Source: a virus (taxonomy: Duplodnaviria; Heunggongvirae; Uroviricota; Caudoviricetes). Taken from it: a stretch of DNA of 18,138 nucleotides. A model generated the notes under the pieces. The model saw only the letters and a program-made list of their open reading frames with translations. It was not told the origin of the DNA and did no database searches. Below, in pieces: positions 1 through 18,138 of the stretch. Location of the stretch: IMG/VR virus record IMGVR_UViG_648276671_000016, one strand, 5' to 3'. The position numbers and the translations under genes are program-made. Each line of letters begins with the position of its first letter. Position 1 is the first letter of the stretch.

Positions 1-1143
1 CTATGCTGTTTTGATATCTACGATAACCCAGTCTTTACCACGATCATCATTGTATCGGTCGGTCATTTTTCTGGATTTATGGCCTAACAACTTTTGCGTA
101 TCCAGACCCTGTTCCCGATATAACCGTTCTGACAGAGATCGCTGCTCATGAAATGTGGGCGCAGTTCCTTGCTCCCATTTTATGCCACATTTTTCCCTGG
201 CCTTTTTAAAAGCCGTTGTCAGAGTATTTGCAGAAACCTGGTCTCCTCTGTTTGCTTGAGAGGTAGTGTGACGGTAATGGACCAGATATTTACTAACAAC
301 AGCATCCCTGCACTGAGATATAACTTCACGAAGGGTAATATTCAGAGCATCGCATTTCAGGTTAAGCGGAATAGCAAGTTTTGAACCGGTTTTTTCCTGA
401 GTAATGTGCAACATGTCGTCCCATATATCAGAGAATTTCAAATTGCAGATATCGCCTAAACGTTGTCCAGTGACAAGAGCAAGTAGCATCCCGCATTTTA
501 AATAGGGCTGCCGTCTGCTTACGCTGTCAAATATTGCCTGCCATTCGGGCAGTGATAATCTTTGGCGGTTTACTCGATTTCGCGGTTGTTTTGTTGCCTG
601 CGCTGGGTTAAATCCTGGCGGAACATGTCCTGCGTGTTGTGCTTCTTTGAAGACGTCGATTAACACCATTCTCACGACTTGCGCCATCCTGTTATGACCT
701 TCAGCCTTTACAGCATCAATTATTTCGGCAATATCAAGTGCGGTAATATCCTTGAGGTGTTGCATTCCACAATGCTCACGGAAAAGACGAATGGGTTTGC
801 CTTTTTGCCGATAGGAGTTGGGTCTTAGTTCATTATGTTGCAGCCTGTCCTCCTGGATAGAAATATATTTATCAAGCCATTCTGTCACCGTAATGTCTGA
901 GCGCCTGCCTTTCATTCTTTCCAGACGCTCATTGACGCTTAATATTTGTCGGGTACGTTGTTCAGCAATAATGGTATTTGCTTCAGTAGCAACTTGTTTT
1001 GCTTCATTCTCATCAGTTCCTAAGCTATGAAAACGACCGGATAGTGGATGTTTGTATTGCCAATATACCTTTCCGGTTCGCTTATCTAATTTGCAATATA
1101 AATTGGGTATAGAGATTTTGTGAGATCGGGGTCTAGCAGCCAT
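1..1143 (-). CDS. int: Tyrosine-type site-specific integrase (lambda-family phage integrase)
   Basis: 380-aa ORF. N-terminal RPRSH...PNLY and C-terminal HEQRSLSERLY / LLGHKS...MTDRYNDDRG parallel lambda Int (HELRSLSARLY, LLGHKSDTMASQYRDDRG) but the protein is clearly not lambda Int. Stop codon sits at nt 1-3; start overlaps xis by 11 nt. Confidence 0.9.
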   Translation of the reverse strand: MAARPRSHKISIPNLYCKLDKRTGKVYWQYKHPLSGRFHSLGTDENEAKQVATEANTIIAEQRTRQILSVNERLERMKGRRSDITVTEWLDKYISIQEDRLQHNELRPNSYRQKGKPIRLFREHCGMQHLKDITALDIAEIIDAVKAEGHNRMAQVVRMVLIDVFKEAQHAGHVPPGFNPAQATKQPRNRVNRQRLSLPEWQAIFDSVSRRQPYLKCGMLLALVTGQRLGDICNLKFSDIWDDMLHITQEKTGSKLAIPLNLKCDALNITLREVISQCRDAVVSKYLVHYRHTTSQANRGDQVSANTLTTAFKKAREKCGIKWEQGTAPTFHEQRSLSERLYREQGLDTQKLLGHKSRKMTDRYNDDRGKDWVIVDIKTA

Positions 1144-1369
1144 CAGCGATTATCCGTTGGAGTTTTGGGTTTGCGTTTATTGGGAGTTGCGGTTCTGCAA
1201 GCGTTCCTACAAAACGGGAATTTCGGTCAATCATCCAGTAGCGACCAACTTTTATAGCGGGTGGGGCCATCATTTTCCCTTGCGCGTATTTTTTCAGAAC
1301 TCGCTCACTTGGTGCTAAGTCCCCAAATTCTTCTTTAGCCCAGTCCTGTAAAGTGATTAGTCGAGACAT
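1133..1369 (-). CDS. xis: Excisionase (Xis-like winged-helix protein)
   Basis: 78-aa ORF immediately upstream of and overlapping int. N-terminal LITLQDWAKEE resembles lambda Xis LTLQEWNARQ. Strong RBS (AGAGGAGGACAA then ATG) on the minus strand. Confidence 0.7.
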   Translation of the reverse strand: MSRLITLQDWAKEEFGDLAPSERVLKKYAQGKMMAPPAIKVGRYWMIDRNSRFVGTLAEPQLPINANPKLQRIIADGC

Positions 1370-1508
1370 TTGTCCTCCTCTTAGCTGCTGAGGGAGTTTG
1401 TGACCGATATATCTGACATGATATTAAGCTCATGGCAGGTACATCTCTTGACTGGTCATAGAGATAAATTTAATGCTGAGAAATGCAGTATTGAATTTAT
1501 CAATTTTT

Positions 1509-1748
1509 CTATTTCCTGCGTATGGCACGTAACTTCTTAATGTGTTCTGCTGTATCGATCTCTTCGGCTATCCGATCTGCATCAGCTTTATTCACAGGTT
1601 CAAAGTCATGATTAAAGCGGAACATGCTGGCGATACATGTTCTGCCTTTTCGGATGTAGTGAACTTTGTTGTGGGTAGAACGCAGGATTTTGCAGGGAGT
1701 TCCGTGGTGGTCGACGTACCAGGTGTTAGGAAAAATGATTCTGAACAT
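1509..1748 (-). CDS. Hypothetical small phage protein (in the ea8.5 position of the exo-xis region)
   Basis: 79-aa ORF with good RBS (GAGGTG, 5-nt spacer). Co-oriented with the leftward early operon. Cys/His-rich N-terminal half (HHGTPC...H...H...C); not confidently assignable to a family. Confidence 0.5.
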   Translation of the reverse strand: MFRIIFPNTWYVDHHGTPCKILRSTHNKVHYIRKGRTCIASMFRFNHDFEPVNKADADRIAEEIDTAEHIKKLRAIRRK

Positions 1749-1795
1749 TTTTACACCTCAGTTGGACGATGTTGAAATTTGCTGCTTTGAGGCCA

Positions 1796-2014
1796 TCACA
1801 GTCCCCATTGTTTGTTCTTAAGTTCGATCTCCTCCTGGCAACTTGCACAAGTCCGACAACCCTGAACGGCCAGGCGTCTTCGCTCATCTATGGGATCGCC
1901 ACACTCACAACAATGAGTGGCAGATATAGCCAGGTGGTTCAGGCGGCGCATTTTTATTGCTGTGTTGCGCTGTAACTCTTCAATTTCTGATGCTGAATCA
2001 ATGATGTCTGCCAT
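1796..2014 (-). CDS. TraR/DksA-family C4-type zinc-finger protein
   Basis: 72-aa ORF containing CCEC...(14)...CRTCASC, the paired CxxC arrangement typical of phage/plasmid TraR-like proteins. Sits in the exo-xis region of the leftward operon. Confidence 0.75.
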   Translation of the reverse strand: MADIIDSASEIEELQRNTAIKMRRLNHLAISATHCCECGDPIDERRRLAVQGCRTCASCQEEIELKNKQWGL

Positions 2015-2062
2015 CTTCCATTAATCCCTGAATTGTTGGTTAATACGCTTGAGGGTGAATGC

Positions 2063-2090
2063 GAATAATAAAAAAGGAGCCTGTAGCTCC
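2063..2090 (-). terminator. Intrinsic terminator inside the leftward early operon
   Basis: Minus-strand transcript reads GGAGC-UACAG-GCUCC followed by UUUUUUAUUAUU (plus-strand stem halves at 2076-2080 and 2086-2090, A-run 2070-2075). Lies between the orf61-like and TraR-like genes. Confidence 0.4.
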
Positions 2091-17157: not shown

Positions 17158-17207
17158 AGAGGTACGGTATGCTGCTGATAGCTTTTACAGACCGTAGTAA
17201 TACACCC

Positions 17208-17230
17208 AGAATGGACGCCAGCATTATTGC
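17208..17230 (+). terminator. Intrinsic terminator after the AraC-family gene
   Basis: CCAGCA-TTAT-TGCTGG (17208-17223) followed by TTTTTTT. Confidence 0.5.
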
Positions 17231-17335
17231 TGGTTTTTTTGTAAAGTAAATCCGACAATTTCTTTAGCTATTTTATCTTCCTTTCTTTTTATCTTCGGTC
17301 TGATTATGCCATCCGTTCTGTACGGAGGTGAGGCT

Positions 17336-17551
17336 ATGAAATCCATGGACAAGTTAACAACGGGGGTCGCTTATGGCACATCGGCGGGTAATGCAGGTTT
17401 TTGGGCATTACAGCTACTTGATAAAGTGACCCCATCGCAGTGGGCTGCAATAGGTGTGCTGGGTAGTCTGATATTTGGTTTGCTGACGTACCTGACAAAC
17501 CTTTATTTCAAGATTAAAGAAGACAGGCGTAAGGCAGCACGGGGAGAGTAA
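17336..17551 (+). CDS. S: Class II holin / pinholin (phage 21 S-like), dual-start
   Basis: 71 aa [71 protein letters not shown]: two TM segments and a charged C-terminus. Met1-Lys-Ser-Met4 dual-start motif; RBS GGAGG. The ORF track starts earlier at 17306. Confidence 0.85.
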
Positions 17552-17555
17552 TTCG

Positions 17556-17900
17556 ATGACTCAAAACTATGAACTGGTTGTGAAAGGAACCCGCAATTAC
17601 GAGGATAAAGTTGCGGTAACTGTAGCATTACGGGACAAAAAACGCTTTGACGGTGAAATTTTTGACCTGGACATCTCGCTGGACCGTGTTGCAGGTGCCG
17701 CGCTGGAGTTTTATGAGGCAGCAGCCAGGAGGCGCATCAGACAGGTCTTCCTGGATGTCGCTGCCGGGTTATGTGAAGGGGATGTGCAGTCACCGGAAAA
17801 GCGCCCCGTAATTTTAGAGGCGCAGAATGTATGGATAACCTACAAAGGAAAGCTACCGGGAAGAATTACTGGTTCCCTGAAGACTCCGCCGAAATGGTAG
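17556..17900 (+). CDS. Hypothetical protein translationally coupled to the holin
   Basis: 114-aa ORF starting 5 nt after the holin stop with RBS GGGGAGAG. No SAR/TM segment and no lysozyme motifs, so it is not the expected endolysin. Confidence 0.5.
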   Translation: MTQNYELVVKGTRNYEDKVAVTVALRDKKRFDGEIFDLDISLDRVAGAALEFYEAAARRRIRQVFLDVAAGLCEGDVQSPEKRPVILEAQNVWITYKGKLPGRITGSLKTPPKW

Positions 17901-18138
17901 TTTTGCCAGCATAATTTTCTTCCAGCAATGCCGCCAGCCACTTGAAAGAATTTTGTTGTTCCTGGGACCATTTGGGGTTGCGTGATTCAAAATGAATGGA
18001 TGCCAGCGTTGGCAGCATTTGCTCCCTGGGAATTGATAAGGCCAGATGTGAAAATGCGACCGTGAGGGCATTAACATCATCCCGAAGCCTGGAGATGCAG
18101 CCGAGCAACTCCTGTAGAGAAATGGTGCTATTGTCCAT
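17866..18138 (-). CDS. Hypothetical protein, convergent with and overlapping the previous gene; possibly 5'-partial at window edge
   Basis: 90-aa minus-strand ORF whose Met codon is the last three nt of the window. Its 3' end overlaps the 3' end of the 17556-17900 gene by 35 nt. No plus-strand ORF exists in 17901-18138. Confidence 0.4.
   Translation of the reverse strand: MDNSTISLQELLGCISRLRDDVNALTVAFSHLALSIPREQMLPTLASIHFESRNPKWSQEQQNSFKWLAALLEENYAGKTTISAESSGNQ

Follow-up and report, generated by a model that had tools for sequence, protein, structure and literature searches.

How do genes that resemble those of several different lambdoid phages come to stand side by side in one prophage? 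The question was raised by an 18,138-nucleotide stretch of viral DNA (Caudoviricetes; IMG/VR record IMGVR_UViG_648276671_000016), which is called here, at its full length, the window. A sequence-only reading of it had proposed a mosaic prophage composed of modules from at least three lambdoid lineages. Mosaicism and 'morons' are the established picture for lambdoid phages. Our results make us confident that the window is one half of an apparently intact lambdoid prophage adjacent to the icd gene, the half containing the integration, recombination, immunity, replication, nin, Q and early-lysis functions. According to the map of open reading frames (ORFs) and the family hits, the gene order was lambda-like, int-xis-(early left)-exo-bet-gam-kil-cI-cro-cII analogue-O-P-nin-Q-holin. 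The modules themselves are known and their arrangement is conventional textbook lambdoid mosaicism, so that the novelty is limited to their combination.

The window was compared with lambda, phages 21, 434, 82 and HK022, the K-12 cryptic prophages Rac, DLP12, e14 and Qin, and the closest database relatives, using both blastn high-scoring segment pairs (E<=1e-5 for Rac) and the identity in 200-bp tiles along the window. Each of the classical references matched just part of the window and the identity changed in abrupt steps. No single described phage aligned at uniform identity, and the stepped tiles together with the ends of the high-scoring pairs bore out a mosaic of modules with at least three affinities. 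The best phage record covered 67% of the window and none covered at least 80%, while the best complete Escherichia coli genome gave 88% coverage at 95.7% identity.

These comparisons demonstrated the mosaic map, the positions of the junctions and the families to which the genes belong. Phage 21 was the sole classical match (98.5% nucleotide identity) of the module containing int, xis and the DUF4222 gene (1-1752), and lambda, 21 and 434 matched the orf61/63/60a, exo, bet and gam module (1792-4594) about equally, at ~97%. The following module (4595-7572), with kil, the operators, cI, cro, a YdaT-type gene and the N-terminus of O with the iterons, was 99.0% identical to PhiR34_1 and 97.6% identical to PhiR47_2, and no DNA match to lambda, 21, 434, 82, Rac, DLP12, e14 or Qin was found for it by blastn or in the tiles. 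The C-terminus of O and P (7573-8727) were again matched by lambda, 21 and 434, at 94-95%; the inverse autotransporter (8728-12581) was matched in other E. coli icd prophages only, and the esterase (12582-13893) in 4A7 and PhiR47_2. The nin genes and most of Q (13894-16011) matched phage 82 at 92.7% and, as far as position 15482, DLP12 at 94.6%. The tile analysis gave no reference for the C-terminus of Q, the candidate late promoter and the AraC gene (16012-17304, with the moron at 16174-17160), and Qin matched the holin and ydfR (17325-17761) at 86.9%. The DNA nearly identical to lambda (NC_001416) comprised 1819-4594 at 97.5% and 7573-8727 at 94.2%. The profile of GC and codon usage separated the same parts: the GC content at third codon positions (GC3) was 0.30-0.39 in the cargo and 0.5-0.62 in the core genes, showing that the cargo is compositionally distinct.

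The junctions were localised at 4594 (the kil stop is at 4588), 6483, 7573 (directly after the last iteron), 8727 (the P stop is at 8737), 12582, 15482, 16174 and 17160. They corresponded either to gene ends (6483, 8727, 12582, 15482, 16174 and 17160) or to boundaries between domains, inside cI, Q and YdfR. The sequence-only reading had placed the junctions at start-codon ambiguities, which did not hold: the gam start was unambiguous, the start of O was ambiguous yet no junction lay at its 5'-end, the O junction being in the middle of the gene at 7573, and the ambiguous autotransporter start was explained by two 1-nt deletions ~270 bp away from the junction. In general, the mechanical extensions of ORFs (251 instead of 229 amino acids in cI, 136 instead of 68 in kil and 81 instead of 71/68 in the holin) added codons that were unconserved or in regulatory DNA. 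Accessory genes were indeed present at the P-nin (the ren position), Q-S and S-R breakpoints, but not at the N position, which was also expected to carry them. That breakpoint cargo would have undescribed functions was only weakly borne out: all the cargo falls in existing Pfam or PHROG families, with no match in PADLOC for any window protein tested, and just the YdfR/DUF1327 gene and a 90-amino acid antisense ORF are without assigned function. The search of the whole window against Rfam (E<=1) gave nothing.

The relatives of the window showed how such a map may have arisen. In all likelihood the window is a member of a population that comprises both icd prophages and free phages, among them phage 21, 4A7 and the PhiR34_1/PhiR47_2 group. 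Contigs encoding an identical 339-amino acid O protein, of which there were ~100, differed from one another in the left arm (a DndB-like gene or orf61/63), in the cargo downstream of cI, in the genes following P (ren-emrE-ybcK-ybcL-ybcM or an autotransporter of 1184-1302 amino acids), in Q (Q82-type or lambda-Q type, PF03589) and in the holin (lambda-type or pinholin-type), demonstrating reassortment at the level of the population. One prophage (L025) was 99.8% identical to the window over 6483-18037 and had a different cI N-terminus, different operators and a different cro, the break coinciding with base 1 of the YdaT-type gene; this difference is a very recent module swap bounded by shared sequence. 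The literature on this picture covers phage 21, phage 434 and a recent lambdoid phage that is described as mosaic (PMC9119081, PMC12315714).

We propose that exo-bet-gam, the YdaT-type gene, O, P and the 82-type nin genes would act as shared linker genes, and that homologous recombination inside these shared stretches would reassort the segments lying in between, which are the imm cassette, the lysis cassette and the type of Q and late promoter. Cargo would be gained or lost by illegitimate (non-homologous) insertion or deletion at a few permissive sites, located downstream of cI and in the P-nin, Q-S and S-R intervals. Junctions would survive where no function is broken, that is, at gene ends or between protein domains. 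Thus, the junction in O would split the iteron-binding half and the iterons from the P-binding half, the junction in cI would split the DNA-binding part from the S24 domain, and the one in Q would split the conserved N-terminal 177 residues from a C-terminus travelling with its own late promoter.

A patchwork of this kind would also be seen if the assembly were a chimera, with repeats such as the 1.15-kb lambda-type O/P stretch having led to the merging of several resident lambdoid prophages into the draft scaffold. A draft scaffold (GL884341.1 of GCA_000176655.2) contains the window at 100% identity, and a run of N, followed by a second copy of the 90-amino acid ORF, begins ~50 bp past the window end in this scaffold (L014 10584-11071). 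The second copy most likely results from misassembly at the gap, a single copy being present in the relative L013, and two homopolymer indels hint at imperfect consensus quality. However, a 387-kb contig of the independent assembly GCA_027220125.1 (L026) contained positions 1-18037 in a single alignment at 99.96%, with icd adjoining, and therefore the arrangement is not a misassembly. An assembly of a Logan read set contained 7558-18138 at 99.94%, and complete genomes were collinear with the window over 1-16011. The independent and Logan assemblies effectively refute a chimera, whose probability we regard as practically negligible. It is very improbable, too, that the window is a decaying cryptic prophage of the DLP12/Rac kind, its patchwork produced mainly by deletion and pseudogenisation in situ. 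The frameshifted autotransporter, the deleted cassette downstream of cI, the absence of N and cIII and the missing counterpart of phage 21 gene 37 would fit such decay. Yet the core early genes (int, xis, exo, bet, gam, kil, cI, cro, the cII analogue, O, P, nin, Q and the holin) were full-length and matched those of functional phages, and 4A7, PhiR34_1 and PhiR47_2, deposited as complete phage genomes, have the same N-less left arm and immunity region. Moreover, L013 continues downstream with genes for endolysin, spanin, terminase, portal and capsid, and the steps in identity corresponded to substitutions of whole modules, not to deletions alone.

The origin of the immunity region had been assigned to the Rac lineage. 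The cro, cII-position and kil genes do belong to the YdaS, YdaT and KilR families, with 30-37% amino acid identity to the Rac proteins, and to this extent the term Rac-type was appropriate. Descent from Rac is nevertheless improbable, since the region had no nucleotide similarity to Rac, its 229-amino acid repressor with helix-turn-helix and S24 domains gave no blastp hit to RacR, the neighbouring replication genes were O/P and not ydaU/ydaV, and the module was instead nearly identical to those of PhiR34_1 and PhiR47_2. None of the references tested was a Rac-like prophage with a kil-cI-cro-ydaT block of >80% nucleotide identity. Against an intact mosaic prophage assembled from several lineages, in turn, four points have to be set. 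The Red and O/P blocks were nearly equal in lambda, 21 and 434, and therefore the parental lineages are not rigorously countable and the 'lineage' labels are loose. The expression of Q is not accounted for, given the absence of N and the strong hairpin (12562-12580) that separates Q from pR. In the window sequence, the autotransporter has a frameshift. Finally, the inducibility of the prophage and the activity of its promoters and terminators are predictions from the sequence, as is the recombination mechanism.

The intact mosaic prophage that we favour begins, at the left end of the window, with a tyrosine integrase of the phage 21, icd-specific type (1-1143, minus strand; Pfam Arm-DNA-bind_1 and Phage_integrase). 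Its identity was 98.9% at the amino acid and 98.5% at the nucleotide level to phage 21 Int, 60% to IntE of e14 and 34.8% (amino acids) to lambda Int; the integrase was thus non-lambda, as had been proposed, and more exactly that of phage 21. The icd gene, outside the window, ended 114 bp from the int stop codon in L001 and L026, indicating insertion at the 3'-end of icd. On the same strand followed a phage 21-type excisionase (1133-1369; Pfam Exc; 100% amino acid identity to phage 21 Xis) and a DUF4222 gene homologous to phage 21 gene 36 (1509-1748; Pfam, 1.4e-19), included in the 98.5% phage 21 block. A junction of 39 bp (1753-1791) then took the place of a 301-bp phage 21 segment with gene 37, and the blastn alignments with phage 21 and L001 were both interrupted at 1752/1792. 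The counterpart of gene 37 in E. coli 1439 is annotated as an ASCH-domain gene.

The small early-left genes, all of them on the minus strand and identified by Pfam/PHROG, were a TraR/DksA zinc finger gene (1796-2014), an orf61-like gene (2113-2394), a DUF1382 gene (2405-2596) and a DUF1317 gene (2569-2757). From 1796 to 2757 the nucleotide identity to lambda, 21 and 434 was 95-100%. The minus-strand exo (2748-3428), bet (3425-4210) and gam (4216-4512) genes encoded products with 97.8, 100 and 98.0% amino acid identity to those of lambda, and the Red block ending at 4594 was 97.5% identical in nucleotides to its lambda and 434 counterparts and 96.9% identical to that of phage 21. Only the 98-amino acid form of gam was present, with one ATG, which follows AGGAG, and with the frame closed by a stop (4567-4569) 19 codons upstream. 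The homology to lambda, 21 and 434 stopped at 4594, having extended six bases into the end of kil. Together with P (97.4%), these genes agreed with the lambda-type assignment made before, being equally of the 21 and 434 type; since the Red genes and P are no closer to lambda than to 21 or 434, they do not identify a lambda lineage. In icd prophages that encode the identical O protein (L021, L022 and L024, 3791-4855), a gene for a 354-amino acid protein with a DndB domain replaced the orf61/DUF1382 genes; this site is a further variable slot of the left arm, possibly related to defence. Also, in DLP12 (L006 3073-3678) the counterparts of window positions 2722-3027 and 8426-8727 were directly abutted (the exoD and peaD pseudogenes, 96-97% nucleotide identity). 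As these segments are 5.4 kb apart in the window, DLP12 seems to have arisen by deletion from a phage with the exo...P architecture of the window.

The immunity region started with kil (4588-4794, minus strand), of the KilR family and 68 amino acids (phrog_294 Kil, 1.7e-37; 36% amino acid identity to Rac KilR), whose homologues in relatives were of identical length and had precomputed Pfam hits to PF27398 KilR. The leftward operator and promoter region (OL/pL; 5074-5150, minus strand) contained three operator copies of the AACnATAGTTGTTTT type around TTGACG-N17-TTAAAT, promoter hexamers that were read by eye and are thus putative, and its repeats were common to the rightward operator region (OR; 6091-6156), where they corresponded to D3, I2, I5 and I7. 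Between them lay a terminator-like hairpin downstream of cI (5251-5268, minus strand; a 6-pair stem and then a T run) and the cI-type repressor gene (5390-6079, minus strand; HTH_3 and Peptidase_S24 in Pfam; phrog_4), whose product was 29% identical in amino acids to 434 cI. The start of the 251-amino acid version of cI fell inside an operator palindrome. Matching operator repeats on both sides of cI are as expected for a working cI/cro switch. On the plus strand, the Cro analogue (6184-6414) belonged to the YdaS family (YdaS_toxin PF15943, 4.1e-17; 30% amino acid identity to Rac YdaS) and the gene at the CII position (6484-7023) to the YdaT family (YdaT_toxin PF06254, 7.7e-30; phrog_163 CII-like; 37.5% to Rac YdaT).

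Between the cI stop codon and the cI terminator we found ~76 bp (5273-5348, minus strand) encoding ...IPI(F/S)ALGSNIKPPQ, the 3'-end of a gevA gene. PhiR47_2 and 4A7 carried a 1.38-kb GevT/GevA insert exactly at this site, and GevT and GevA matched PDC-M11A and PDC-M11B of the PADLOC candidate system PDC-M11, while PhiR5_1 had HipD/HipA in the slot downstream of cI. The remnant, judged by these alignments, is the scar of a deleted candidate defence cassette, and documents loss of cargo. The site directly downstream of cI, which is the rexAB position in lambda, is a variable cargo slot, emptied in the window. A literature search on 'GevT' found no paper.

The replication module began with a hybrid initiator gene, O (7020-8039, plus strand; Pfam Phage_rep_O), with its own N-terminal domain and a lambda-type C-terminus. 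Its product was 66.7% identical to lambda O, the alignment starting at residue 31. The true start of O is likely the ATG at 7110, which is preceded by GGAGG and is where the alignment with lambda O begins, the ATG at 7020 overlapping the upstream stop codon. Five copies of the origin iteron TTACCyGAAtCAGGTAA were located inside O (7461-7572), and the DNA homology to lambda, 21 and 434 resumed at the very next base (7573), equivalent to lambda 39119, which directly follows the fourth lambda iteron. The half of O that determines specificity moves together with its own iterons, and the half interacting with P moves together with P. The P gene (8036-8737, plus strand) encoded a protein with 98.3% amino acid identity to that of phage 21, and its homology ended at 8727.

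An antiterminator N with nutL and nutR is not universal among lambdoid phages. No N-like ORF was found between pL and kil, and no ORF of at least 40 amino acids lay wholly inside 4999-5389 on the leftward strand. The cargo that the sequence-only reading had placed at the N position was absent as well, since the 0.6 kb between kil and cI held just the leftward operators and promoter, the hairpin at 5251-5268 and the 76-bp gevA remnant. A 136-amino acid ORF (4588-4998) with an arginine-rich stretch (KRTRERR) near its N-terminus was considered as N-like and discarded: its candidate starts had weak ribosome-binding sites, and its frame was broken by a stop codon in the copy of E. coli 1439, where the 68-amino acid kil was intact. 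Neither was a put- or nut-like RNA supported, for the pL leader folded no better than shuffled sequences (z = -0.86) and Rfam gave nothing. A boxA-like element, CGCTCTTTAACAA (6427-6439, plus strand), was present 13 bases downstream of the cro stop and fitted exactly the search pattern YGCTCTTTAACAA; phage 21 has the near-identical TGCTCTTTAACAG at its annotated boxA-R (nutR), and 4A7, which has a different cro, had no boxA-like element there. No boxB-like hairpin followed the boxA, nor was any hairpin detected in the region from cro to the YdaT-type gene. A 15-nt sequence, CGCAGCTTrAATTTC, occurred at 4990-5004 and 6405-6419 in the same orientation in the leftward and rightward early transcripts, like nut sites; this pair is probably due to chance, as its hairpin context was unconserved and similar repeat pairs are common.

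As for Q, it was separated from pR by ~5 kb of cargo ending in the strong palindromic hairpin at 12562-12580, and the rightward transcript had only the boxA resembling those of rrn operons. It is conceivable, although quite unlikely in our estimation, that the early programme of these phages is lambda-like but operates with no N-type antiterminator, and that Q would be expressed either through boxA antitermination of the rrn type by host Nus factors or from a promoter-like site upstream of ylcH (13895-13923, plus strand), which is annotated as putative in phage 82. If this were true, the delayed-early control would follow a logic unlike that of lambda, 21, P22 or HK022, with a lysis decision dependent on Q expression.

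Downstream of P, an inverse autotransporter of the intimin/invasin family (8987-12554, plus strand; Pfam IAT_beta, Big_1 and Invasin_D3) and a convergent esterase gene replaced ren; the relatives had ren-emrE-ybcK-(ybcL-ybcM) or autotransporters of 1184-1302 amino acids. In PDB, the autotransporter matched the beta-barrels of invasin and intimin (2e-74 and 2e-64). The frame was lost after seven codons by two 1-nt deletions at ~9005 and ~9008 (A4 and A7 in the window, A5 and A8 in L013, L015 and L001), and the TTG start called mechanically at 9081 was due to these two deletions in A runs. L013, L015 and L001, two of them at 99.94% identity, had the intact ATG at 8987 and a protein of 1189 or 1302 amino acids with a normal signal peptide. 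In the window, the barrel and the Big_1/invasin repeats were present and the signal-peptide part was out of frame; the frameshift is either a homopolymer consensus error of the draft assembly or a recent pseudogene. Inside this gene, the distal passenger (11200-12554) was 68-84% identical to the E. coli 1439 allele and the barrel and proximal repeats 93-100%. This drop, together with alleles of 1184, 1189, 1287 and 1302 amino acids, implied mosaicism and repeat-number variation within the cargo gene itself. The hairpin GGGAGGGGTAACCCCTCCC (12562-12580), a GC-rich and perfect 8-bp palindrome, separated the two convergent genes and was terminator-like on both strands. The alpha/beta-hydrolase (esterase) gene (12586-13629, minus strand; Pfam BD-FAE, 7.6e-45; phrog_3341 esterase) was 92-100% identical in nucleotides to those of 4A7 and PhiR47_2.

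The nin region was of the 82/DLP12 type and consisted, on the plus strand, of ylcH (13979-14080), ybcN (14077-14532), ninE (14532-14702), ybcO (14695-14985), rusA (14982-15344) and ylcG (15341-15481). The DLP12-type assignment was correct (94.6% nucleotide identity over 13894-15482), and phage 82 (X92588) was an equally apt reference (92.7% over 13894-16011). The proposed long Q was confirmed as a late antiterminator of 234 amino acids and the Q82 family (15478-16182, plus strand; PF06323, 3.5e-88). Of its N-terminal residues, 156/177 were identical to those of Q82; in the C-terminal part only 20/52 were (28/52 to the Q of a Klebsiella phage), the last ~57 residues being divergent. A candidate late promoter pR' (TTGCAA-N17-TATATT; 16151-16179, plus strand), with a predicted start near 16186, overlapped the Q stop codon, and the strongest terminator hairpin of the region, a candidate tR', followed at 16235-16257 (plus strand). 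Klebsiella phage ST11-VIM1phi8.1, whose Q had the most similar C-terminus, showed the same hexamers at the Q stop and a terminator downstream, and the two elements in the window are likely the late promoter and its terminator. A 69-amino acid ORF at 16198-16407 was rejected as cargo; it had no family hit, and it must be spurious because it runs across the strongest terminator. The search for tRNAs between Q and S, where phage 21 has them, found none.

The gene following Q encoded an AraC-family regulator of 244 amino acids (16423-17157, plus strand, starting at the ATG at 16423; Pfam HTH_18 and HTH_AraC; phrog_1450), with a GC content of 0.37 and a GC3 of 0.30. A promoter-like site (16359-16388, plus strand), conserved in four copies, and a putative terminator (17217-17234, plus strand) matched the consensus only. 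The best PDB sequence matches were GadX, CsvR, Rns and ToxT, and the identity to AppY was 30%. In other lambdoid phages, the closest copies of the gene (83-85% nucleotide identity) had tail-fibre genes on one side and int or attR on the other, and the unit was absent at the Q-S site from phages 21, 82, 4A7 and PhiR47_2. With its putative own promoter and terminator, its distinct composition and its presence/absence polymorphism, the unit has the features of a moron. AppY of DLP12 and PatE, PsrA and PsrB of enterohaemorrhagic E. coli are likewise prophage-borne, AT-rich cargo with AraC/XylS C-terminal DNA-binding domains, and such regulators are known (PMC10057817, PMC10877973); the gene in the window differs from them in being located between Q and the holin and not in the b region. 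In L023 (18535-21020), which has the same immunity region, a lambda-Q-type antiterminator (PF03589, 250 amino acids) preceded the AraC gene, the pinholin, the DUF1327 gene and the 90-amino acid ORF, so that the block of AraC plus lysis genes reassorts independently of the Q type.

The lysis cassette started with a class II holin of the pinholin family (17336-17551, plus strand; PF04971, 4.5e-34), with dual starts at 17336 and 17345 and the M-K-S-M motif at 17336-17347. It had been described as phage-21-type, which was right as to the family (PF04971, 'P21 holin S') but not as to the closest relative: EssQ of Qin was 98.6% identical in amino acids (86.9% in nucleotides), EssD of DLP12 93% and S21 81.7% (71.9% in nucleotides). 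It was followed by a YdfR/DUF1327 gene (17556-17900, plus strand; PF07041, 1.7e-40), 77% identical to Qin YdfR over 74 residues, with 347 homologues that are called 'YdfR family protein' where the source names them. The 90-amino acid ORF (17866-18138, minus strand; phrog_2411, 7.1e-54) lay antisense to the 3'-end of ydfR; its homologues formed 61 clusters, the named ones all hypothetical and all but one labelled Escherichia or Shigella. The AlphaFold2 model of this ORF had four helices and a predicted local distance difference test score (pLDDT) of 71, that of YdfR a pLDDT of 56. Foldseek against PDB gave nothing below E = 0.19 (YdfR) and E = 1 (90-amino acid ORF), and the PDB sequence search gave no match to YdfR and only chance-level hits (E >= 0.16) to the ORF. 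It is conceivable, though again unlikely, that the two genes constitute an undescribed lysis-timing or exclusion module. The endolysin gene was located just outside the window in L013 and L014; its product was 92% identical to RrrQ and, starting with MNVKVRYGLSAAVLVLIGAGASAPQ, looked like a signal-anchor-release protein by eye. In its order of holin, DUF1327 gene and lysozyme the cassette was the same as that of Qin (essQ-ydfR-rrrQ-rzpQ), from which it differed by the additional 90-amino acid antisense ORF, the C-terminus of YdfR and the gene upstream, an AraC regulator and not cspB/cspF.

Placed among its closest known systems, the window shared with phage 21 (OL657228) the nearly identical Int and Xis and the attachment region at icd, the order from the DUF4222 gene to gam at 97-98.5% nucleotide identity, the lambda-type O C-terminus and P, and the pinholin family. 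In contrast, the window lacks a number of phage 21 features, namely N, nutL/nutR, cIII, ea10, ral, the phage 21 cI, cro and cII, lambda-type iterons, ren, lambda-type nin genes, the Q21 antiterminator and the tRNAs between Q and S; unlike the window, phage 21 has no gene between S and R, and the holins were 82% identical. The left arms of PhiR47_2 (PV340567) and 4A7 (NC_049946, Bievrevirus) were collinear with 1-5348 at 97-98%, and the immunity and origin module was that of PhiR34_1 (PV340559) at 99.0% and PhiR47_2 at 97.6%. All three lack an N gene, as the window does, and PhiR47_2 and 4A7 have the esterase and the 82-type nin genes in common with it (92-100%). These two differed from the window in having ren-emrE/qacE-ybcK in the place of the autotransporter and GevTA (PDC-M11) downstream of cI, where the window has just the remnant. 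Moreover, 4A7 has a different cI N-terminus, different operators and cro, a QuuD-like Q, an ompC-type porin and an EssD-type holin, and PhiR47_2 a canonical Q82 with a lambda-type S. Phage 82 and DLP12 had the same set and order of genes orf33/ylcH, orf151/ybcN, ninE, ybcO, rusA and ylcG. The Q of the window is of the Q82 family, but the DNA of its last ~57 residues and the DNA downstream of it are unrelated to Q82, and DLP12 has QuuD instead of a Q82-type Q.

The relevance of these results is mainly for annotation. The starts of cI, kil, O and the holin were corrected, and a probable homopolymer error or pseudogene was flagged in the adhesin gene. In the relatives, the slot downstream of cI holds candidate defence or toxin-antitoxin cassettes. 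If the site at 16151-16179 is the late promoter, the araC gene would form part of the late transcript, at the place that stx occupies in Shiga-toxin phages, and the regulator could be co-expressed with the late genes. The window thus provides a well-resolved example of modular exchange, in a family of icd prophages with interchangeable immunity, Q and lysis modules.

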